Assembly (NCBI GenBank): GCA_918797485.1 | Contig: CAKKNE010000006.1 | Location: 124,001-188,000, forward strand | Direction of reading: 5' to 3' | DNA length: 64,000 bases | Source of the DNA: Pelagomonas calceolata | Lineage: Eukaryota | Shown here: positions 4,277-50,864 of the stretch, one piece after another | Layout: every line of letters begins with the position of its first letter | Position numbering within the stretch: the stretch's first letter is position 1 | Notes under the pieces: model-generated | What the model was told of the DNA's origin: nothing | Databases searched by the model: none | The model's input: only the letters and a program-made list of their open reading frames with translations | Made by a program: the position numbers and the translations under genes

Positions 4277-5234
4277 ATGGCTGGCGAGCAAATTGGCAGC
4301 GTGTGCCTTGCGGAGGTCGTCGCAGTAGAACAGTCCGCGGCGGGGTCGGGCTTCCTGGCCGACGTGGACGTCTTGAGACGCGAACTGGGCCTCGCCGGTC
4401 AGGCCTTCGAGGTGGTCGCGAGCGCCTGCCGCATGATCGGCGTGCCGGCGGAGGGCGGTCTCGTCGCGCAGGCGGCCGCGTGCCGCGCGGCGCTGGTCGG
4501 CGGGCCGCGCGCAAACCCGTCGGACGACGCATTTGTCACGGAGCCGAACTACACAGCGTATACGGGCAAGGCATTGCACGCGCCGGCGGCGGCCCAGATG
4601 GATCGGGGCTTCCCCATCGCCGGGCGCGAGGGGCCGCTGCGCCTGACGCTCGCGTCGCACCCCGGCCAAGCGCTCACGTTGGAAGGCGATTGCTGTTGTC
4701 CGTTTCCGCCGCCGGTCTTCGTCTGCTGCTGTTCCGGCGTCAGGCTAGGGGACGAGCATCGCGCGATGCAAGTCGTCTACAATCCGTTCCGCGGGCAGCT
4801 CCTCCGCCCCGAGGCCTGCAACCAGCGCATACACAACTCGTGGGAAAATTTCGTGCCCAACAATGAAGTGAATTCCTTCCACTGCGGCTGCTTCGACTGC
4901 GACCATCATGAATCCTGGACCCTCTACTCGGACGGGACGATTCACTCGAAATATCATCCGGAGCTGGTGCTCGGCGCCCGCGACGACGGCAAGCTCTGCC
5001 TCGTCCGCCAGGAAGACCAGCGGAGGCGCCTCGCTCTTCTGCGGCGGACGAGGCAGAGCTTGCGCGCGGGGCTCCGTCGACGAGTTCTGGGACGCGCTCA
5101 TGAAGTTCGTCGACGGCCAGAAGGGCGCGACGGGCGCGGAGGGCTTCCTGCTCGAGGCCCTGCGCGCGTCGACGGACTACCGCCAGTTCGCCGTGACGAT
5201 GCGCCAGATGCGGCGCGACCGGTCGGGGAAGTAA
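4277..5234 (+). CDS. Hypothetical protein, apparently frameshifted near 5030-5070; ricin-B-like segment plus BART-like C-terminus
   Basis: WTLYSDGTIHSKYHPELVLGA (beta-trefoil-like repeat) in one frame; SVDEFWDALMKF...FLLEALRASTDYRQFAVTM (ARL2-binding BART-like) in another frame. Confidence 0.4.
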
Positions 5235-6100
5235 AAACTTGTAGTGTTGGGCTGCCCCCAGTCCCAGCTTGACCGGTGCGGCTGCCAGGGAGAGCTAGTA
5301 CTAGAAGTACTACAAGTACGCCGGGCCCGCGCGGCCGCGCCCCCGCGTGTTAGCTCGGAGGCGGCCGCGGAGCTGTGCGACGCGCTCGCGCAATCGGAGA
5401 GGCGTTGCCGGAGGCGTTCTTCCGTACTTCTCCCGCGGTGTTATCCCGAAAAACCCGCGTAAGTGCATTTAGCAAAAGCTCTCCTTTTTTTTCAAATAAG
5501 TGTTGTGCGTTGGGCGTCTAGCGTCAACGCTCAAACACAGAGCATTCGTGTGCAGTCTCCGAGTGCAGTCTCACGACAGAGGCCTAAAAAAGAATAGCAA
5601 AAGTTGCAACTTTTTGGCAAAAGCCAGCCCTCTGTCGCGTTTTTCGTCTCATTTTGCGGCAAGCACCGGCGTCTCGACCGCATGGCTTCGGCCACATTGC
5701 CAGCAGTCACCCCTTTCACAACTCTCGTGTCTGGTCGAAGCCATCCTTCATATTGACGTCGCGGCGACCTCGCGAGCGCGAACGACGAACGGTACGCGAC
5801 ACGCGAATATCCTACGAGACGGAGCTACGGCGCGCGGAGAGGGACGGATGAGAACAAAGGATGACCCCTACGATCTTCTCTTCAAACATTCTTATTACAT
5901 TGGGTCGCACCGCGCAGGCGACCGCCCCCGTTCATCCTCTGAACGCACGACTCCCGCGTCTCCTTTAGCTCCTGCGCACGTCCCCGTACGCGGCGGTCGT
6001 CCGGCACGCCGTCGATCGTCGACCGGTCTCGGGAAGGTGCTCTCTTAATTTGAAGGCACCGCCGCGTCTCGTCGCGCACGTTCAGTCACCTCCCACGCAG

Positions 6101-6724: not shown

Positions 6725-9700
6725 ATGCCGAGACATAGAGACCGAGTTGTGAAGGGGGCCCTGTGGTTGGGCCGCGGTGGCCGTCCGGACGGCCCACTCC
6801 ACCCGGTAGTCGCACAAAAATTAGAAGCTGCCGTCCAGAACTGCAATGCCGTCGACGCACAAGGGCTGCGCGATTTCTGCGACCACGCCACGCCCAAAGA
6901 ATCGCTCGCCTTGTTCGAGAAAGGCGAAAAGTACTGGATTCATCCGGCCGGTGACGTGCAGCTCTTCTTAAGGACGCAGGCCGCAGAAGCCCTCGGGGCT
7001 ATTAGTAAAGCCAAAGACGTGGAAGCGGCAGTGCGGGCCGTCGGCGCCATCCAAAACGTCTTCGGCTCGCACCTCGGCGTCCACTTCTTCGAGACCGAGT
7101 CGTACGTGAAGCAGTCGAAGCTAGAAGTCCAGGAGGGCAAGGTGCTCGTGATCGAACTGCTCTGCGCCCTGCGGAACAACAAGTTCAACAGCATCAAGGA
7201 CCCGGAGGATTCTCTCACCGCAGCCGAGATATATAAAGCGCTCACAGCTGTCGCCAAGGCGAGCGGCGTAGCGCCCCGTGTGGAAATCAACTTTCAACGC
7301 GTCCCAGCCCGACGCGACGTCGTCCCCGTAACGCATCTGATCGATGTCATGGGCGTTCGAGCGTCTCTTGCAATAATTTCCATTCCACACAGGTAATGCC
7401 CCAGTATATATTGATCCTGGAGGCGGTCCTCGTCCCTGGTCTAGATGGCGTCCTGGTCATCGGCAAGGTCAAGGGCGACGTCTACGAGTACAACCCGAGC
7501 CCCAACATCCACGCGTTCGCGCTGAACCATCTCGAGTCCGAGCCGCGCGCCGCGCTCCTCAACAAGTGCCGGGAGGTGAACGCGGCGATCCTCAAGCGCA
7601 TCTCGGACGACTTCGTCATCGTCGCGTGCGGCGGCAATGCCGAGGTCGAGCTCGGCCACACGCTAAAGCTCCTCAGCGGCGACGCGCGCCGCCGCCTCGT
7701 GGCCAAGTACAGCGTGGCCCACCCGTCCGTGCTAGCATACTGCAAGCCGAAGCAGGTCGAGTTCGTAGCTTGGGCGGAAGTCAAAATTTCACGACGCCTT
7801 CGTGCTGAATCGTCGGCCTTCACGCCATCGACGCAACGCCTGCTCGATGGCATGGCGGTGTAGCTACCTTACCACTCGATGGAGCCAGCACGGTCATCTC
7901 ATCGCCGAGAAATGACTTCGTGAAGAAATATCGTGCACCCGACGCACTGGTTGATTTCCATACAGGTTCCTAGCCAAATTCGCCGAAGCCGTAGACAAAC
8001 TCTGCTTTGCCGACGGTAAGGGGCCGGCCGCCTTGCAGGCATTAGCGGCCACGGGCGACGCGCCGTTGCCGGAGCCGTGGAGTGAATGCAGGAGGGCGTC
8101 GGGGAACAAGAGCCATGCAGGCCGCGTCTACATCGCCGCAACAAAGGACGGCGGCCAGGTCTCCACGGGCAGCCGCATCGATGCGATGAACGCCTCGTTA
8201 CACATCGAAGAGCATCCAGACACGTCCATCGAAGATGCCTTGACGTTCGTCATCAAGGAGCGCGTCGCCTTAGATTACTTCGAGGTCGTCGGTACCCGTG
8301 TTGAAACCGCGTTGTCCCGTTTCCTAACTCACTGGTTGATGTCCACGCAGAAGGTCCGGGTCAGCGGAGGCATGTGGTGGCACAAGTACCCCGGCTTCCC
8401 CCCCATTGGCAACCACAAGCACGCGGTGGCGTTCTCAGCAGCACTCGTGGCCGCGGGAAAGCTCGGCGCGCCCGCCAACGACCCGCTCGTCGCCGAGCTC
8501 TACCACGAGACGGTCGGCGTTCACCTCGAGAAGCGGGTCGCGGCGAAGGAAATGCCCGGCCTTGTGCACACAGTCGTCAACTTGCAGCAGAACAAACACG
8601 TATGGGCCCACGGCGACCTCGTCGCGACCAGCGAGGACCAAGCCCGGAAGTTCTCGGCAGCGCTCAAGAGCAGAGGACTCCTCGAGGCGCGCGCCGGCGA
8701 CCCGCGCGTCCAGTCCACCGCGCGGAAATAAAAGTTCACGGACACATCTTCGCCAAGGTGCGCCCAACTCACTGGTTGATTTCCACAGGTCCAGAAAGCG
8801 TACGACGAGGTCATCCTCGCGCCACTCCTCGCCAAAAAGGAGCAGAGAGGGTTGATAGTCGTCCTCCAATCGAATCCTCCTGCAGTATATAGATGGCACC
8901 TCCCCGGAACAACTATGTATCTGACCAAGGAGAACGACGCCAAGGCCTTCTCGGAAGCGCTGATCCGGGCCAAACTCGTCGACGCGCCCGCCGGCGACCG
9001 GCGTGTCAGGGAGCTGTTCAACAAGACCTTCCCGGACCTGGCCAACAAGAAATGGGCTAACTACATCAAGGCAGTGACAAAGGCGAAGATAGCGGCGTCG
9101 CCGAGGCTCATCGCGGTGGCGAAGGCCGCCGCCGCTGCCGCCGAGCGCCAGTCGCCGCAGAGCTCGCTCACTTCGTCGGACGTCGCTGCGCCTCCGCCGC
9201 GGCCGCGCGCGTCGGGCGTCGCCGCGGCGCCGTCGATCAGTCAGCAGAAACGGAAGGCGTCGCACCCTTCTCTGCAGAACTTCTTTAGGAAGAGGACGAA
9301 GCAGCCGCCGCGCGCCGCGCCGTCGCGCGACGAGCTGGCCCGCGCCGCGGCGCCACCGTCGCGCGACGAGCTGCCGCCGGGCGCCGCCGCGTCGCCCCGC
9401 GACGAGCCGGCGGCCGCCGCCGCCGCGCGCCTCTTCGCGGCGCCGCCGTCGCGCGCCGCGCCGTCGCGCGACGAGCTGGCCCGCGCCGCGGCGCCACCGT
9501 CGCGCGACGAGCCGCCGCCGGGCGCCGCCGCGTCGCCGCGCGACGAGCCGGCGGCGGCCGCCGCCGCGCGCTTCTTCGCGGCGCAGCCGTCGCGCGCCAC
9601 GCCGTCGCGCGACGAGCTGCCGCGCGCCGCGGCGCCGCCGTCGCGCGACGAGCCGCCGCCGGGCGCCGCCGCGTCGCCGCGCGACGAGCCGGCGGCGGCC

Positions 9701-10872: not shown

Positions 10873-11206
10873 TCGTGGTTAATTCGTAGGCCGCCCCGCT
10901 CCGCGACGCGTCCCGCTCGTAATCCTTGTGCAGTAACCCGAGCGGCCCAATCGTCGGGGCAAAGCGGTTCTTGTGCGAGGTCTAATACATGTCGTGCGCC
11001 ATCGCGGCGTAGCTGGCCGTCTCGGTAGCGTGCGACGTACAGCCGGCGCTGGCTGGAGGGCCGAAACTGTGAATGCTAATAAACGCAGCGCGACGTCGTA
11101 ATCCTGCACGAAAAGGCTGCGAAGCTACGCACTGCGCCTCACATTGACGGCTCGTGCCAGAGGCAACAAAGCCGAGAGTCACGAGCGCTAATAATTGCCA
11201 GCATCC

Positions 11207-11228
11207 CTAGTGTCTTACAGACCGCTAG
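11207..11228 (+). promoter_or_regulatory. CTAG-bounded intergenic motif copy
   Basis: ctagtgtcttacagaccgctag; no intact + strand gene downstream. Confidence 0.55.
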
Positions 11229-15335: not shown

Positions 15336-18134
<2,799 letters not shown>

Positions 18135-21601: not shown

Positions 21602-21623
21602 CTAGCGGCCTGTAAGATACTAG
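21602..21623 (-). promoter_or_regulatory. CTAG-bounded motif, 161 bp upstream of ATG 21441
   Basis: ctagcggcctgtaagatactag. Confidence 0.65.
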
Positions 21624-21686
21624 CAAACAAGCAGACGTATCAGACGCCCGCAGATACGACTCTATAGGTATTCATACACAAGCTGC

Positions 21687-24925: not shown

Positions 24926-24945
24926 AGTAGTTATCTGTGGAAATG

Positions 24946-24967
24946 CTAGTGTCTTACATGCCGCTAG
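24946..24967 (+). promoter_or_regulatory. CTAG-bounded motif, 146 bp upstream of ATG 25113
   Basis: ctagtgtcttacatgccgctag. Confidence 0.65.
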
Positions 24968-33198: not shown

Positions 33199-35865
33199 AT
33201 GCGCCTACTCGCCATGCTCCTGGCCGCGCGGGCGGCGCGGGCGCTGCGCCCGGCGCTGCGGCCGCCCCGCGCGCCTCCACAAGCGTGGCGGCGCTTCGCC
33301 GCGACGCAGGAGCCGCCGCCCAAGGAGACGGAGATCATTCCGATTGAATTGGAGGACGAGATGGCCGACAGTTTCATGAAGTATGCCCTGTCGACAATTC
33401 TAGGACGAGCTTTGCCAGACGCCCGCGACGGTTTGAAGCCCGTGCACCGGCGCATCTTGTTTGCGATGCGCGAGTTGAAGTTAGAACCATCATCACAATA
33501 CCGAAAATGTGCGAGAGTCGTAGGTGAGGTATTAGGAAAGTTCCACCCGCACGGAGACTCATCAGTGTACGAGGCGCTCGTGCGCATGGCCCAGGACTTT
33601 GTCATGTCCGAGCGTCTTGTGGATGGCCACGGCAACTTCGGAAGTGTGGACGGGGACCCGCCGGCGGCGATGCGCTACACGGAGTCGCGGTTGACGAAGT
33701 TCGCGGCGTCCGCGTTGCTGAATTCATCGGACCTAGGCCAGGGTCGCGCGGGCGCGTCGTTGAACGGGGGCATCGGCGTGCGCTTCTCCGAGAACTTCGA
33801 CGCGTCCGAATACGAGCCGGACGTCTTGCCGGCGAGATTACCGGTGTTGCTCGTGAACGGCGCGCAAGGTATTGCGGTTGGGATGGCGACGAACATCCCG
33901 CCCCACAACCTGGGCGAGGTCTGCGACGCGGCGCTGGGTCTAGCGAAGGCGGCGAAGAACAATGAGGTCTTCGACGACGATGCACTGTTAAGAGCTCTGC
34001 CGGCGCCCGACTTCCCGACGGGCGGATTGATCATGGGCACGACGGGCGTGGCCCGGGCCTACGCTACGGGGTCTGGTTCCGTCTTGGTGCGAGCTAGGAC
34101 GTCCATCGAGAAATTGCGGTCTGGGCGGACGGCGATCGTGGCCACGGAGCTGCCTTATTTAGTCAGCAAGGCGGATCTCCTCGAGAAGACGGCCGAGGCC
34201 GTGAACAACAAGAAGCTGCAAGGTATTCGTGATTTGCGAGATGAAAGCGGTCGAGCTGGGATGCGTGTGGTGTTCGAACTGAAACGTGACGCGCATCCGG
34301 AGACGGTGCTGGCGAATTTGTTCAAGTCGACGCGGTTGCAGGCGTCGTTCCCCGCGAATTTGGTGGCCGTGGATTGTATAAGAGACGAGAACGGCGTGGA
34401 AGACCCCGACAGAAAAGCACCGGTCCGATTAACTTTACGAAGTGCATTGGAGCGGTGGATGCGGTTCCGGTTCGATTGTGTGCGGAGGCGGGCGTCGTAT
34501 GAAGAGGCTCGAGCGGCGGCGCGACTCCATATCGTGGAAGGCTTGGTGTTGGCGCAGGCGGCCGCGGACGAAGTTGTGGCCGCGGTGCGGAAGTCGGCGT
34601 CGCCCGAGGACGCGAGGAATCTATTGATGAATGGTGGCGTGCCGGGCCTGAAGGCCCTGTCCGAGACGCAAGCCAGGGCCGTCCTGGCGCTTACACTATC
34701 TCGGTTGACGTCTCTGGCAGCCAATGAGCTCAAAGACGAGGAAGCGGATTTAACGCAGGAGCTCGCCCGTCTAAGGAACGAGCTGGAGAACGACTCCGCG
34801 GTCTACGACCGCATCTGCGGCGAGTTGGAGGACTGCAAGAAGCGGTTCGGCGGGCCGCGGCGGTCGGAGATCGTCGAGGAGGACAGCGGTGAGGTGACGG
34901 AGGAGGACACGACGCCGAACGAGCGGAGCGCCATCCTAGCGCTGGCCGGCAATTATCTCAAAAGGACGTCCCTCAAGGAGTTCGCGGCGCAGGCTCGGGG
35001 CGGCGTCGGGCGGCGGGCGGCGCCGCTGGCGGTCGAGCACCTCGCGACGTGCCGCGATCATGATACTTTGCTATGTATCACGGACGCGGGCGTGGCGTAC
35101 GGCGTCCGAGCCTTCAAAGTGCCGCAGGCTAGTCGTGCGGCGCGCGGGTCTCCCTTATCTCGTGTCTTGCCGGTCGACGCCGACAGAAGTATCGCGGGGC
35201 TGTTGCCCGTGTCGCAGCAGCAACTCGAAGGCGATCAAGATTACGTGGTCCTCGTGACGAAACAAGGGCTAGTCAAGAGGACGCCGCTCTCGGCCTACAG
35301 AGACATGACGTCGCGCGGCAAGATCGCGATTCGCCTGAACGAGGGCGACGCCGTGGGCTGGGCGGCGCTGTGCACGTTGGGCGACTCGCTGGTCGTCGCG
35401 ACGGCCAAGGGCATGCTGCTCAAGTACGACGTCGACGCCGTGCGCGAGACGGCGCGGGCGACGATGGGCGTCAAGGCCCTCAAATTGAGGGACGACGACG
35501 AGCTCGCGACGGCGCGGGTGGTCGCTCCGGACAAGGACCACGTCCTCGTGCTGACCGCGGCGGGCTACGGAAAGCGCGTCGACGTCGAGGCGGTGCGCGC
35601 GCGCAGCCGGGCGACGATGGGCGTCCAGGCGATCAAGTTCAAGAAGGAGGGCGACGTGTTGGTGGACGTGAGAGGGGTAGCCGACGACGACGAGGTCCTG
35701 GTCGTGACGAGCGGGGGGACCATCGCTCGCGTGGCCGCGAACACGATCGCTGCGCAGTCGCGGACGGCGAAAGGGGTATCCGTGCAGAAGAGCACGGCGA
35801 AGGACCCGTGCGTCGGCATCTCGCTCGTGCCCGGGGACCTGGCGGGCGTCGTGGCGGACGAGTGA
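33199..35865 (+). CDS. gyrA: DNA gyrase subunit A, organelle-targeted
   Basis: [36 protein letters not shown] (catalytic Tyr), GyrA-box QARGGVG, C-terminal beta-pinwheel repeats; N-terminal targeting peptide. Confidence 0.96.
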
Positions 35866-36390
35866 GTAAGTGCTCTATTTAGGTCACTGTACGGGTTTTG
35901 CGCGATTCTCTAGTTTCACCAAAAACCAGCGCGTTAACAGTATCGTGCGTTACAGGGGGCCAAGGTTACGAGAACTTCACTGTACGTACGCTCTCAGAGA
36001 TGTAACCGCGCCCGACCGTCTGAAACCCCTGAAGAGGTGGATACGCGGGCCCGGTCTTCGCCGGAGTGTGCGTCAGCGTGGGCCTCGTCACGCTCGTGTT
36101 TGCGCTCTATCTATTCCTCTCCGAAATGAAGACCTACGCGACAAGGACCCGCGTGGGAAGGCAGCTCTCGAGCTCGGTCGACGCCGCGGCCAACTACGCG
36201 AAGAAGAGAATTCGCCGCGTCGGGTCATCTGAGATCGGCGCTGAGGAGGAGGCCAAGGACGACGCGGCGGCGGCCGCGCTTTAGATGTTTTGGGCCCTAC
36301 TCTGGGTCCGCCCTCCCCGCCCCGATCCCACTAGGCCCTGGAGGGGCGTGTACATAACATCCTATCTTACGGAAATAACCCTATCTCGTG

Positions 36391-39039
36391 CTAGTGTGTC
36401 GACACACTGGAGCCGTCTCGCGCCGACGCGGTACCGGCGCGCCAGGGGCCATGCTCCTCGCACCACGCGAGCACCGCCGGGTGCAGGAGGGCGGCGGCGC
36501 GCGCGCGGTCGCCGCGGGCGAGCGCCTCGCGTGCGGCGGACGAGGAGATGTCGGGCAGCTCGGGCCCCATCACGAGATGGCCCGCGTCCAGGTCTACGCC
36601 CGCCCGCCGCGCGCCCGCGAGCGCCTTTTCCGTGAATCCCGGCCGCCCCAACACGATCATCCGGTACTGCGGCCCGACATCCGCAAACTTGTTATAGCGC
36701 ACTACATCGTCCGCCCCGTTCATGAAAAAGTGGACGAAGTGGAGGTGCGGGTGCGTCTGCCGAAGCAGCCCGACCGTCTCGCCCTCGCGGCAGGACTCCC
36801 ACGATAGCCACGGCAGCTCCTCCGCCGCCATCTTCACCAGCGCCAGCCGCTTTTCCGCACTCAGCGACGCCTCGCCCTTTTTCGCAAGCTTCCGGTCGAC
36901 GTACGACGATCCGTTGAGCGAGATCAGCCCGAGAACGGCACCAAACGGCTCGAGGTTCGCCGGGCGGGCCACCCCGGCCTCCACGCCCAGTAATATCCTC
37001 CGCGCCTCGATAAAGGCTCGTGTGTGCCCGCGCGTCACGGGGCAGAGCGAGCCGAGCAACGTCACCACGCCCACGCGCGTGCCCGGCTCTACGTCGGCGA
37101 GCGCGTCGTGCAGTTTTTTTAGCGAGCCGTCGAACCACGCTGCCGCGGCGCTCGCTGGCCGCGCGGGCGGCGGCGGCGCGGGGGCGGGGGCGGGCGCCGG
37201 CAAACCCAGCGCCACGAGCACCTGTTGCAGAAGGAGCGTCGGCGGCTTGGTGCCGTCGAGTACGAGCTGTGGCATCGGTCCGCCCTCTCCGAAGCAGCTC
37301 TCCCAGTATTTGTAATGCCGAGGCCACAGGTTGCGGTCGAAGTACTCCTCCGTCACGCGAGTCGTTGCCATGCGCCGCTCGTAGCACGCCTCCCTACTAA
37401 GCTCGATCCAGACGAGGTGGTGGAGCAAGTCGACCACGCCACCCGGAGGCCGGCTTGCGAAGGCGCGGAATCCCTCGACGATGACAAAGTGCTTTGACTT
37501 GCTCGCCTCGACGACGACGTCTCGGAAGGCTTTGAAATCGATCGAGTCGGTGCTCTCCCAGCCGCCCTCCGCCTGGGCGGCCAGCCCTTTCGAGGCGAAG
37601 CGGTCCTGGCGGATCACGGCCGTCTTGGACGCTCCGAGCGCCTTCGCCAGCACCGAGGCCAACGTACTCTTGCCGCTGCGCGTGCAGCCGGAGATGCCAA
37701 TCACAAGTGTAGGTGCGTCCCGGGCGAAGACAAAGAAGCTGCCGTACCACTCTCGAAAGGTGGGCCCGTCAGCGCTCGGCGCGTCCAGAGCCTCTGCGAG
37801 GCATCGACGGACGTCGGCAGCGGAGAGCGCGCGAGCGCAGCGTGGCATCAACTCACTCATGAAGCCTCCGAGCCGATTGATCGCGATTTTTGTCCGCGGT
37901 GCAACGTACGCGATGGCGCCCGCTGCCAAGATGGCCTCGCCGAGGCCTACCGAGCCGGTGCTGCACGCCGAGGAGACAACAACTGCACCGCGCAGATCGA
38001 GGCGCTCTCGGATATCGCTCGCCCCCAAACGCACCCGACACCGCTTTTCGCCGTCCCACTGCATCGCAAAGCCCGCTGGATCGCCGTGCATGCCCACGTG
38101 GACAATGCGCGGGCGGTGCGTACGCAGGGCCTCGGCGATCTTGTCGACGGTCAGCGGCGAGGCGTCAATGTGCGACGAAGGGTGCAAATCCCACCAGCTG
38201 CTGTTGTCGAACATGAGGAATGGCGTGGAGCTCGCGAGAAGAAGGTCGTGCAGGGCGATGTACTCCGCCCACCCCGGTTTGAAGCTCTCGCCCATGGTGG
38301 TCGCCAGCTCGGGAGACCGGGAGCAGGCGAAGAGAAGCACCTCGCAGCGGGCTAGCTTCGGCTCCTTGCTTTCAATTGGCTCCCGCGGCGGCCGGAGCTC
38401 GGTTCCCCCGTCCGCCGCGTCGGCGACAGCGAGCGAGCCGCTCTCGGCCAGCTGAAGCTCGGCGCGCAGCTGCATCCAGATCTCGGCCAGCAGGTTCTCC
38501 CCGCGGGCCGTGACCGGGTCGAAGCCCCAGACCGCGTCCCGCTTGAGGCTGAGCAGCGGGTGCTGCCCCGTCGCCAGCAGTAGCTCGCGCAGGCCGCCCG
38601 GGTCGGCCGCTAGCTTCGCCCTAACCGCTGTCTCCATGACGCGGCGCTTCCGCCGGTCCCAGAGCGCTTTGTCCCACGGCTGGGGCTTCTGCGCGTGGTA
38701 GTAGGCCTCCGACCCGGCGTAGACCCGCCCGCCGATCGTGAGCGGCGGCTCGTCGTAGCGCCAGAACGAGTGGACGTTCTCGAACTCAGTGGCCCAGGCG
38801 TAGCTCCTCCCTAAATGCGCCACCGCGGCGTCCACGCCACCGGGGTCGTGGCCAAGCGCCCGGCCTACCAGCCGCTGCGGGGCCCAGCACGGCAGCGCCA
38901 GCCCGAGCGCCGCCAGCCCGGGGTGCGCGGCGACGACCGACGCCTGCGCTGCCGACAGCCAGACCACGGGCTCGTCCAGCTGCCCCAGGAGCGCGGCTGG
39001 CTTCTCCGCCTGCTCCGCTGCATTCTCATAAGACGACAT
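36391..39039 (-). CDS. Four-domain fusion: NADAR (YbiA/DUF1768) - CHAT/caspase-like - nicotinamide riboside kinase - NMN adenylyltransferase (882 aa)
   Basis: NADAR: SEAYYHAQK, WD...VMETAVRAK, LRELLLATG, DAVWG, GENLLAEIWMQLR; CHAT: IVHVGMHG, VVSSACSTG, LAAGA; NRK: IGISGCTRSGKST, QDRF, IVEGF, YFDRNLWP; NMNAT: GSLCPVTRGH, GADD, GRPG, DISSS, LLHPAV. Confidence 0.85.
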   Translation of the reverse strand: MSSYENAAEQAEKPAALLGQLDEPVVWLSAAQASVVAAHPGLAALGLALPCWAPQRLVGRALGHDPGGVDAAVAHLGRSYAWATEFENVHSFWRYDEPPLTIGGRVYAGSEAYYHAQKPQPWDKALWDRRKRRVMETAVRAKLAADPGGLRELLLATGQHPLLSLKRDAVWGFDPVTARGENLLAEIWMQLRAELQLAESGSLAVADAADGGTELRPPREPIESKEPKLARCEVLLFACSRSPELATTMGESFKPGWAEYIALHDLLLASSTPFLMFDNSSWWDLHPSSHIDASPLTVDKIAEALRTHRPRIVHVGMHGDPAGFAMQWDGEKRCRVRLGASDIRERLDLRGAVVVSSACSTGSVGLGEAILAAGAIAYVAPRTKIAINRLGGFMSELMPRCARALSAADVRRCLAEALDAPSADGPTFREWYGSFFVFARDAPTLVIGISGCTRSGKSTLASVLAKALGASKTAVIRQDRFASKGLAAQAEGGWESTDSIDFKAFRDVVVEASKSKHFVIVEGFRAFASRPPGGVVDLLHHLVWIELSREACYERRMATTRVTEEYFDRNLWPRHYKYWESCFGEGGPMPQLVLDGTKPPTLLLQQVLVALGLPAPAPAPAPPPPARPASAAAAWFDGSLKKLHDALADVEPGTRVGVVTLLGSLCPVTRGHTRAFIEARRILLGVEAGVARPANLEPFGAVLGLISLNGSSYVDRKLAKKGEASLSAEKRLALVKMAAEELPWLSWESCREGETVGLLRQTHPHLHFVHFFMNGADDVVRYNKFADVGPQYRMIVLGRPGFTEKALAGARRAGVDLDAGHLVMGPELPDISSSAAREALARGDRARAAALLHPAVLAWCEEHGPWRAGTASARDGSSVSTH

Positions 39040-39163
39040 CTGTCCCACTCTTCTTTCAGGGGGGCAGCTCGGCCCAGCCGAGGGGGGATTTAAACGCTGC
39101 CCCACTGTCCGAACGCTGCCCCACTGCCCCACTGTCCTGCCCCACGTCCGGAGAGGATCTGTG

Positions 39164-39183
39164 CTAGTATGTCTATGAACTAG
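39164..39183 (+). promoter_or_regulatory. CTAG-bounded motif variant, 157 bp upstream of CSN5 ATG
   Basis: ctagtatgtctatgaactag. Confidence 0.45.
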
Positions 39184-39339
39184 ATAGAGTCGGGTCGAGG
39201 CGCGCGCCATCGCTTGCTGCGCTTGCTGAGCCAAATCAGTGCAACCGCTACGTCCCTACGCGTTACCAGCTCTAGTGTCCAGCGAAGCCACTGGAGCGAC
39301 GCCAGCGCGCGAGCACTAGGCAAAAAAAAACAAAAAACC

Positions 39340-40587
39340 ATGGAGGTGGACCCGCCGCCCGCGCCGGCGCCTGAGGCGACGCCGGCAGCGCTCCCCGGCG
39401 ACAGCTTCTACGCCGTCGACGAGACCGCCGTCGACGCGCAGCGGCAGGCGAAGCCGTGGACGCAGGACGCGACCTACTTTAAGAGGGTAGCTGTATCGCC
39501 GGCCGCGTCGACCAAAATGCTCGCGCACGCCCAACGAGGCTGCGAGGCCGGCGTCAAGGCGGGCGGCAAGCCGCTCGAGGTCATGGGTTTATTGCTGGGT
39601 TATCCGGACGCGGACGCGTCGAAGCGGCGCCTCGTCGTCACGGACGCCTTGCCCCTGCCGGTGACGGGCTTCGAGACGAGCGTCGTCGCCGACGACGACA
39701 ACGTGGTCAACTACATGATCGCGCTCTCCGATCTGGTCGAGAAGACGAGGAAGGAGCGCCTGATGGGCTGGTACCACAGCCACCCCTTCGACGTCGACGA
39801 GGACCACGACAACTGCTTCTTTAGCTCGACGGACCTTTCTACGCAGCTCAGCTGGCAGAACGCGGAAGACCCGCAAGGTAACCCCTTCCTCGCCATCGTC
39901 CTGGACCCGCTGCGCAGCGCGGCCAAGAACTCGGCCGCGCTCGCGGCGTTTAGGGCGTACCCGCCGGCCTACACGCCGCCCGCGAACCAGTGCCCCGACG
40001 GCGAGATCTGCGCCGACGACGCGCGCCGCGTCGAGGTCTGGGGCTCGTGCTGGCACCGCTACTACCAGCTCGATCTCGAGTACTTCACTGTGTGGAAATC
40101 GAGCAGGCGTCGCGTCGATGGCGTGGAGGTCGACGCGACGAGTCAGCACGAACGCGCCGTAAAATTTTGATTTCCACACAGGTACTTCATGAGCGGCCAA
40201 GCTAGAGCTATAGTCGACGTGCTCAACCGGAGCCACCTCTGGGCGAAGACGCTGAGTGAGTCGCACCGCGAGGACACCACGGACCGGGTCGCGAAGATCG
40301 CCGACAAGCTCGCGCGCGCGCCAGGAGCCCAGCCGCCGCGTGCGCCACGCTTAGGCGGCTACGGCGGCCTCGACGCGCTCGGGTCCGGCGCGGCGCCGAG
40401 CGCTCGCGCCGACCAGGCACCCCTCTCCAAGGCCGCCGACGCGGCGGCGGGCGTCGCGACTGAGGCGCTCCACGGCCAGCTCTCGCAGCTGACGAAGCGC
40501 CACCTCCTCTGCGGCTGCAGCGGCTTCCAGCGCGCGGTCCACTCGTACCTGGCGCGCAAAGGGCAGGTCGCGAAGCCGTGCGCCTAG
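39340..40587 (+). CDS. CSN5: COP9 signalosome subunit 5 (JAMM/MPN+); exons 39340-40079 and 40182-40587
   Basis: KPWTQDATYFK, EVMGLL, GWYHSHPF, FFSSTD, FLAIVLDPLRS, AFRAYP, YYQLDLEYF after splicing. Confidence 0.92.
40080..40181 (+). mobile_element. Introner intron in CSN5 (102 nt)
   Basis: Perfect 8-bp TSD gtacttca (40080-40087, 40182-40189), perfect 13-bp TIR; last ~70 nt nearly identical to TPI intron 2. Confidence 0.95.
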
Positions 40588-41806: not shown

Positions 41807-41828
41807 CTAGCGGGTTGTAAGACACTAG
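41807..41828 (-). promoter_or_regulatory. CTAG-bounded motif in divergent intergenic region, 139 bp upstream of ATG 41668
   Basis: ctagcgggttgtaagacactag. Confidence 0.65.
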
Positions 41829-42014
41829 AAGCAAGAAAAGTCCGTGAGGACTCCCGGCGGCCGCGCGCAGCGGCACGTGGGGAGTATTCCGCCCGTCAGA
41901 AGGATCTCGTGTACGAGCTAGCCGCTAACTAACTTACAGCCTCCCCATGCTTGTAGCGCCAACAAGGGGGAGACTGCGGCGAGGCAGCCCCGTGCCGCCG
42001 GGGGCAGCCCAAAG

Positions 42015-50795: not shown

Positions 50796-50842
50796 CTAAG
50801 ATTTTGATGTGAAATCACGGGTGTCAGCAAGCCGTCTCCTTG

Positions 50843-50864
50843 CTAGTGTCTTACAGGCCGCTAG
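50843..50864 (+). promoter_or_regulatory. CTAG-bounded motif, 198 bp upstream of ATG 51062
   Basis: ctagtgtcttacaggccgctag. Confidence 0.65.

Follow-up and report, generated by a model that had tools for sequence, protein, structure and literature searches.

A NADAR-CHAT-NRK-NMNAT gene of Pelagomonas calceolata belongs to a shuffling family with a putative role in NAD+ resupply and ADP-ribose clean-up

The depletion of nicotinamide adenine dinucleotide (NAD+) and its reversal are a known front of the conflict between phages and bacteria and have been little described for algae. In NadR and in the phage system NARP3, which comprises PnuC and the NadR-like protein Bas30_86, nicotinamide riboside (NR) kinase and nicotinamide mononucleotide (NMN) adenylyltransferase reside in one polypeptide, and NARP3 restores NAD+ by these two steps after immune depletion (accessible parts of PMC13464706 and PMC9503650); for eukaryotic viruses, no NAD+ salvage was reported in PMC9503650. 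The two predicted activities are likewise joined in the gene studied here, a NADAR-CHAT-NRK-NMNAT open reading frame (ORF) of 882 amino acids at positions 36391..39039 (minus strand) of a 64,000-nucleotide stretch of Pelagomonas calceolata DNA (contig CAKKNE010000006.1, positions 124,001 to 188,000), hereafter called the window.

A first-pass annotation of the window knew of no description of this architecture, and none was found in the literature searched; supplements (e.g., of PMC9503650) or de Souza and Aravind 2012 may list such fusions. Close relatives are polymorphic in their architecture, and the four-domain chain represents one state of a family that shuffles its domains. Its activities are deduced from its domains, and the chances are about even that it represents a domain-shuffled module of NAD+ resupply and ADP-ribose clean-up countering NAD+-consuming events.

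One state of a shuffling family

Five near-full-length homologues, 87 to 92% identical in the alignment, were found among 7997 candidates scored. Four of them are NADAR-NRK-NMNAT proteins with a short linker in place of CHAT, and the fifth (P0007) is a NADAR-CHAT-NRK protein that ends before NMNAT, as do the fragments P0002, P0013, and P0165. CHAT alone, behind an N-terminus of its own, is represented by P0014 (a cluster of 40 sequences), P0015, P0162, and P0163, and yet another sequence lies ahead of the kinase in P0012 and P0033. No four-domain protein was present among 160 relatives classified, including the best 150 of 1037 search matches. There are at least four architectures among copies that are 73 to 98% identical per domain; CHAT can be preceded by three different sequences, and so can the kinase, two different linkers connect NADAR to CHAT, and the NADAR-NRK-NMNAT core recurs in four separate clusters.

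The CHAT-bearing copies nest among CHAT-less ones in a quick tree (SH-aLRT 87; 24 of 47 inner branches under 80), and insertion of CHAT is therefore the likelier direction. CHAT adjoins this NADAR at 1 of 80 metagenome loci, many of them on short contigs, and in none of the distant NADAR-family proteins. The domain is optional and was likely inserted recently. The first-pass annotation had seen the protease as a metabolite-gated switch; this is not a conserved feature, given that CHAT is missing from four of the five near-full-length homologues, stands alone in other proteins, and neighbours NADAR only in near-identical relatives.

Copies of the gene are present at more than one locus. A metagenome contig (L001) encodes a NADAR-CHAT protein with 0 differences from the window over codons 23-240 (218 codons); beyond codon 240, the proportion of synonymous differences (pS) is 0.19, with proportions of nonsynonymous and synonymous differences (pN/pS) of 0.056/0.193 over 134 CHAT codons. 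Such a mosaic fits a recent recombination between diverged copies. Homology of L001 to the window starts at position 39105, 66 nt above the ATG, and further up L001 carries a different gene without Pfam match, not the CSN5 gene that flanks the ORF in the window. The gene may have moved, or L001 may hold a paralogue without counterpart in the cultured strain. The spacer of L001 contains a 22-nt motif (554-575) that has five copies in the window (11206-11227, 21603-21624, 24945-24966, 41808-41829, and 50842-50863, most between long ORFs) and never appeared in 100 shuffles, so that L001 should stem from the same species or close kin. The close homologues, too, appear to share the lineage of the window and its presumed host, because P0055 runs from the NMNAT domain into sequence similar to a translation of the CSN5 intron that is repeated in the window.

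The gene itself is intact and transcribed. Translation of 36391-39039 on the minus strand gave 882 amino acids without internal stop or intron, as first annotated, and the exact protein is already on record in the protein collection searched, where it comes from a contig of 3.9 Mb. All motifs quoted earlier were recovered in place: SEAYY at residues 110-114, HVGMHG at 314-319 (nt 38100-38083), SSACS at 356-360 (nt 37974-37960), GCTRSGKST at 451-459, QDRF at 478-481, GSLCPVTRGH at 663-672, and DISSS at 830-834. Stranded poly(A) reads of two runs that bear the same sample label (the analysis used 6 and 12 in 100 of their reads) covered all 15 bins of 36448-39162 on the expected strand, with depths of 0.6-46 in one run and 2.2-54 in the other; these are short reads, which cannot prove a single transcript. 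Neither run contained a splice joint inside the ORF; one of them has six molecule ends at 38287.

Several technical explanations could be rejected. A start further upstream, giving a 947-amino-acid frame, is absent from the protein collection and has almost no minus-strand RNA above 39162. Splicing of CHAT out of the transcript disagrees with the lack of an RNA joint in the ORF and with the different linker used by CHAT-less proteins. An assembly chimera, which the first-pass annotation had named as a possible refutation, was dismissed because every domain junction is carried by wild relatives: NADAR-CHAT by L001, P0005, and P0007; CHAT-NRK by P0002, P0004, P0007, P0013, P0016, P0029, and P0165; and NRK-NMNAT by P0006, P0008-P0010, P0012, and P0055. 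DNA contigs also match without differences, with the provisos that run X3 is possibly the source of the window, that none of the listed contigs spans the whole gene, and that 38381-38411 lies outside the listed pieces. An NRK-Sir2 fusion (P0011), in which a CHAT tail and NRK switch to Sir2 inside the kinase, was set aside as one sequence and a likely assembly chimera.

Active sites of the four domains

The NRK-like nucleoside kinase (37204..37710, minus strand; residues ~444-612) has human NRK1 as its nearest solved structure (E 2.7e-7), and its profile finds NRK1 with E 9e-14 over positions 4-167 and UCK1 with E 9e-9 over positions 3-119. Residues T453, K457, D479, E522, and R556 match T12, K16, D36, E98, and R129 of NRK1, of which R129 binds ribose and D36 and E98 are essential (accessible part of PMC1994991). 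The P-loop residues and both essential carboxylates are retained, as the NRK1-like motifs of the first-pass annotation had suggested.

The NMNAT-like adenylyltransferase occupies 36424..37122 on the minus strand (residues ~640-872). Enzymes of the NMNAT/NadD type are marked by (T/H)xxH, a conserved Lys, GxD, and SxT/S, and the window domain has T669-x-x-H672, K717, GADD (775-778), and SSS (832-834); H672, K717, D777, and S832 are kept in 86 of 86 family members. The residue after GADD, an aromatic with a stacking role, is W, Y, or F in 84 of 86. In a search with a profile of 41 family sequences, human NMNAT3 and NMNAT1 rank first (E 2e-9 to 4e-9), and 32 of the 41 members match the bacterial model TIGR00482 at E<=0.01. 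The earlier description of the domain as NMNAT/NadD-like is thus justified by its motifs and its best solved relatives, although it misses the cut-off of that model (27.6 versus 112.45 bits).

The NADAR domain (38440..38982, minus strand; residues ~20-200) belongs to an N-extended subfamily termed 'WATEFEN' here. It exceeds the PF08719 cut-off (45.3 versus 35.1 bits), and a model built from 42 sequences (pLDDT 95.7) matches only YbiA and the Phytophthora NADAR (2b3w, Z 9.8, rmsd 2.8, 126 aligned; 8bau, Z 9.0, rmsd 3.3, 124 aligned), YbiA being the closest solved NADAR. The domain was correctly recognized in the first-pass annotation, and its start was misplaced at nt 38790: the module begins near residue 20, and residues 20-85 are conserved in the family. 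In a metagenome scan, 80 of 106 relatives were kept and 42 non-redundant sequences aligned, across which residues ~20-195 form a single conserved unit. WATEFEN served as search pattern and its invariance is built in; H90, E97, E111, K142, K166, and D168 are invariant in 42 of 42 sequences without having been selected for, and K118 is kept in 40.

Most of the ligand-binding residues have been preserved, and the catalytic one has not. The window domain retains E111, K118, W127, K131, D168, and W171, the equivalents of E43, K50, W89, R93, D130, and W133 in 8bau, where E43 and K50 of the Pn protein are diagnostic for NADARs (accessible part of PMC11543638), and the pocket of the subfamily is likely to bind an ADP-ribose-like ligand, judging from these residues. 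At the position of the catalytic acid (Pn E125, Ec D171) stands S164, and the 42 sequences have Ser (32), Ala (9), or Glu (1); the loop is one residue shorter, which places either S164 or a gap opposite the acid, and a segment of ~25-30 residues with R79 and K75 (8bau numbering) is deleted. The matching acid is required for activity in the E. coli C7 NADAR and in SCO5665, according to the accessible text of PMC11543638 and PMC12945103. Because the catalytic acid of YbiA and DarG1 is absent, guanine de-ADP-ribosylation cannot be assumed and the erasing of ADP-ribose is unproven.

The CHAT domain (37720..38349, minus strand; residues ~231-440) passes PF12770 narrowly and only when excised (24.8 versus 24 bits); the whole 882-residue protein gives no Pfam CHAT match. 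For comparison, CHAT of P0014 scores 25.3 bits, and the top Atlas match of the window domain is a CHAT cluster (0.94). A model from 8 sequences (pLDDT 63) ranks TPR-CHAT (E 2e-4), SAVED-CHAT, and DdvA at positions 1-12 in Foldseek, and a wide fold search places SAVED-CHAT 8tl0 first (Z 9.4, rmsd 4.0, 169 aligned), tied with a designed protein (Z 9.0). The catalytic motifs of CHAT proteases are His-Gly and Cys; both are intact (H318-G319 and C359), as had been annotated, and are retained in all relatives spanning them. The His-Gly motif coincides with its counterpart in 8tl0, in an alignment whose E of 0.45 is not significant. CHAT is predicted to be an active protease. Pfam and NCBIfam revealed no SAVED or TPR domain in the protein, and the neighbours of CHAT are NADAR and NRK.

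Clean-up and refill among the competing explanations

A clean-up-and-refill function is supported most strongly by the finding that ADP-ribose hydrolases are repeatedly fused to an enzyme that makes NAD+. Among longer proteins chosen from the best 150 of 1037 matches, 21 of the 36 scanned for the NMNAT family had a partner at E<=0.001, and in 9 of the 21 this was an ADP-ribose hydrolase family (Macro 2, mPARG 2, ARH 1, MavL-like 2, NADAR 2); the others were SH3 (5), histidine phosphatase (2), RNA ligase, methylase, IIGP-type GTPase, eRF1 domain 3, and kinase. For the NADAR family, 10 of 21 proteins had a partner, and 8 of these partners were NMNAT, kinase, mPARG, MavL-like, or another NADAR, the last recognized by two stretches that matched. 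Distant fusions join NMNAT to NADAR (P0056, P0065, and P0116), an NRK-like kinase to NADAR (P0026 and L006), kinase to NMNAT (P0124), and NADAR-family domains to mPARG (P0061, L020, and L036) or a MavL-like hydrolase (P0083), in domain orders unlike that of the window and on scattered tree branches.

By analogy with the enzyme families, the kinase would phosphorylate NR with ATP to NMN, and the adenylyltransferase would convert NMN and ATP to NAD+. The NADAR with its altered active site may, to judge from the fusions, bind or cleave an ADP-ribose derivative; the protein would thereby clear the products of an NAD+-consuming attack or stress and refill the pool; CHAT, the predicted protease, would be a recently added optional extra. 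The preferred context would be conflict, be it with a virus, a bacterial effector, or the cell's own NADases. The proposal of the first-pass annotation that the protein both erases ADP-ribosylation and rebuilds NAD+ is therefore supported in its resupply part, by most of the catalytic residues of NRK and NMNAT and by the hydrolase fusions, and unproven in its eraser part, given the lost catalytic acid.

A number of observations weigh against such a function. Apart from the NADAR, which is devoid of the catalytic acid of characterised NADARs, the kinase has Glu495 at the position of the ribose-binding D56 of NRK1, its lid is three residues shorter with R132, Y134, and Q135-P136 of NRK1 unmatched, and its nearest named Atlas clusters are auto-labelled bacterial uridine kinases. 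The segment matching W-x-E-T of human NMNAT is variable across the 86 family members. The RNA depth of the ORF in culture is about that of gyrA and CSN5, as for a routinely expressed gene. No ADP-ribosyltransferase, NADase, viral, or transposon gene was detected among the 26 other window frames scanned, the neighbours being housekeeping genes, and PADLOC had no match for the whole protein or its NADAR, CHAT, or NMNAT parts and returned weak P-loop matches only. Finally, the partner counts derive from assembled environmental proteins, some of which are possibly chimeras (e.g., P0011).

One alternative is a routine vitamin B3 salvage with metabolite damage control, in which NRK-NMNAT would scavenge NR, NADAR would dispose of incorrect or reactive ribosyl intermediates, a task that YbiA performs in riboflavin synthesis, and CHAT would be a passenger. 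Expression at the depth of housekeeping neighbours, a codon composition that fits host genes, the proximity to YbiA, and the dispensability of CHAT are in line with it; however, different neighbours and at least four architectures among such similar copies would be unusual for a housekeeping enzyme, and the commonest annotated partners of the NMNAT family are ADP-ribose hydrolases. We consider this explanation unlikely. Less probable still is a nucleotide-gated protease, whose non-catalytic NADAR would sense ADP-ribose or a derivative and switch on the adjacent CHAT in the manner of SAVED, with NRK-NMNAT tuning or resetting the signal. The retained ADP-ribose contacts beside the lost acid, the position of CHAT directly after NADAR, the SAVED-CHAT structure as best wide fold match, the NMNAT-less NADAR-CHAT-NRK protein P0007, and the maintenance of both protease motifs would agree with gating. 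On the other hand, CHAT adjoins this NADAR only in near-identical relatives and by two different linkers, the fold match is tied with a designed protein on a model of modest pLDDT, and the invariant H90, E97, K142, and K166 could form another catalytic site.

A neutral by-product of shuffling, i.e., a four-domain form without joint function in which only the single domains matter, could account for the lack of another complete four-domain protein among the relatives classified, for the mosaic identity to L001, and for the start-less frame next door. Against it stand 882 open and transcribed codons that have preserved the catalytic motifs, a pN lower than the pS in CHAT, and also a three-domain core in four separate clusters and pairwise fusions that recur in distant lineages; we regard neutrality as very unlikely. 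It is hardly credible that the protein is an effector rather than an antidote, with a non-standard dinucleotide as the product of kinase and adenylyltransferase, or with an NMNAT-like domain that uses up NAD+ or ADP-ribose together with pyrophosphate. The deviations of the kinase lid and the W-x-E-T segment from the human enzymes would be explained, and the fused ADP-ribose-releasing hydrolases would supply ADP-ribose directly, but the aromatic residue after GADD is maintained, NMNATs are the best structural neighbours, and the gene is expressed in growing cultures. A bolder proposal, in our view about as improbable as the gated protease, is a combinatorial innate-immune cassette: populations of a marine alga would exchange the four modules and relocate them from locus to locus, and the full form would sense ADP-ribose arising from NAD+ attack via its non-catalytic NADAR, fire the protease, and refill NAD+. 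If true, the cassette would unite eukaryotic equivalents of SAVED-CHAT and NARP3 in a single chain and would open the way to a network of ADP-ribose hydrolase-NMNAT fusions in protists that has not been described. Overall, NAD+ resupply with ADP-ribose clean-up remains the preferred function of the gene.

Genomic context, origin, and comparison with known systems

The window is part of a compact eukaryotic chromosome with genes for gyrA, CSN5, an ALB3/Oxa1-type insertase, a HECT ligase, a proteasome ATPase, and a glucan synthase. Its features would suggest a pelagophyte-type alga as host. The ORF is flanked by gyrA, an 81-codon frame, and CSN5. The 81-codon frame (36042..36284, plus strand) has a hydrophobic stretch without ATG before it, a GC content at third codon positions (GC3) of 0.84, no Pfam match, and no plus-strand RNA, and is possibly a gene remnant. 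Three short GTGGGGCAG-type repeats are located upstream of the ATG (39093..39137, minus strand), and neither long terminal repeats nor transposon ends were found in 35800-39500. Foreign codon usage was rejected, as the GC3 of the ORF (0.85) is within the range of host genes (0.70-0.91). The spliced CSN5 intron (40080-40181, plus strand; 102 nt, GT..AG, very high read depth) has relatives at 16185-16268 and 7776-7848 and presumably resembles an introner element.

A viral origin of the gene was rejected, because scans of viral contigs with the whole protein and with the NADAR and NMNAT profiles gave no relative. A prokaryotic origin was likewise discarded: among 185,579 species, the NADAR subfamily is present in 2 genomes and the NMNAT domain has one weak match (E 1e-5, 65 residues). 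These prokaryotic scans rely on exact peptide patterns, by which distant forms are missed. The two prokaryotic carriers (L081, 4182-5642; L082, 5031-5534) are metagenome-assembled genomes with ordinary bacterial genes around. NADAR-family genes on L028, L044, L048-L051, L057, L060, L068, and L075 lie amid dense ORFs mostly without Pfam match, together with genes for ankyrin, ephrin-receptor-like, RING, and heliorhodopsin proteins, a setting that recalls giant viruses; no viral hallmark gene was seen there, and viral scans with two neighbour genes were empty.

Further NADAR fusions illustrate the range of partners. On L020, the mPARG-NADAR gene (91-1839) is near a gene with a PARP catalytic domain (4617-5600), possibly a writer-eraser pair. 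Partners on L066 (451-1815), L010 (3549-5981), L014 (2-2626), and L074 (1954-3192) are an OTU protease (at the Pfam cut-off), actin-fragmin kinase, D123, and villin headpiece. With OTU, NADAR would have another protease among its partners besides CHAT.

The gene offers a single, expressed, and culturable test case of a NadR-like pathway built independently from eukaryote-type parts. We found no description of two of the families involved. One is a NADAR subfamily without the canonical catalytic acid, whose loss implies either a sensing role or new chemistry; the other is an NMNAT-like family with fusions to ADP-ribose hydrolases of five unrelated families. Whole domains have been gained and lost among copies 73 to 98% identical per domain, and shuffling can thus be observed within one lineage. 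The shuffling family with its altered NADAR is a more valuable lead than the four-domain chain itself.

In comparison with known systems, the window NADAR shares its fold and most ADP-ribose contacts with YbiA, the Phytophthora NADAR (8bau), and DarG1 (accessible parts of PMC11543638, PMC12945103, and PMC11125620), but it has no Glu, Asp, or His at the catalytic position, lacks the R79/K75 segment, and carries a conserved N-terminal extension of ~65 residues. The DarTG1 antitoxin needs an adjacent DarT1 toxin gene, and no DarT-like gene was found among the flanking genes checked. The anti-phage NADAR DS-32 (NF053876) matches the NADAR core weakly (E 1e-7, 31 bits versus a cut-off of 240), and the window protein is not a member. 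SAVED-CHAT (8tl0), TPR-CHAT/Csx29 (Craspase), and DdvA have the caspase-like fold and the His-Gly/Cys motifs in common with the window CHAT, which differs from these bacterial proteases in being eukaryotic, ~210 residues long, 12-23% identical to them, and either alone or placed within an NAD enzyme. In humans, NRK and NMNAT are encoded by separate genes. Human NRK1/NRK2 and NMNAT1/3 are the closest solved relatives of the window kinase and NMNAT; the lid residues by which NRK1 excludes uridine are absent from the window kinase, and NRK2, which likewise has no Gln-Pro, accepts uridine (accessible part of PMC1994991). Unlike in NadR and NARP3, the kinase precedes NMNAT, the two domains have eukaryotic NRK1 and NMNAT as their nearest relatives, NADAR and CHAT are present in addition, no NadR model is matched, and no PnuC gene lies beside the ORF. 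By analogy, the window gene would work like NadR and NARP3 without being a member of either.

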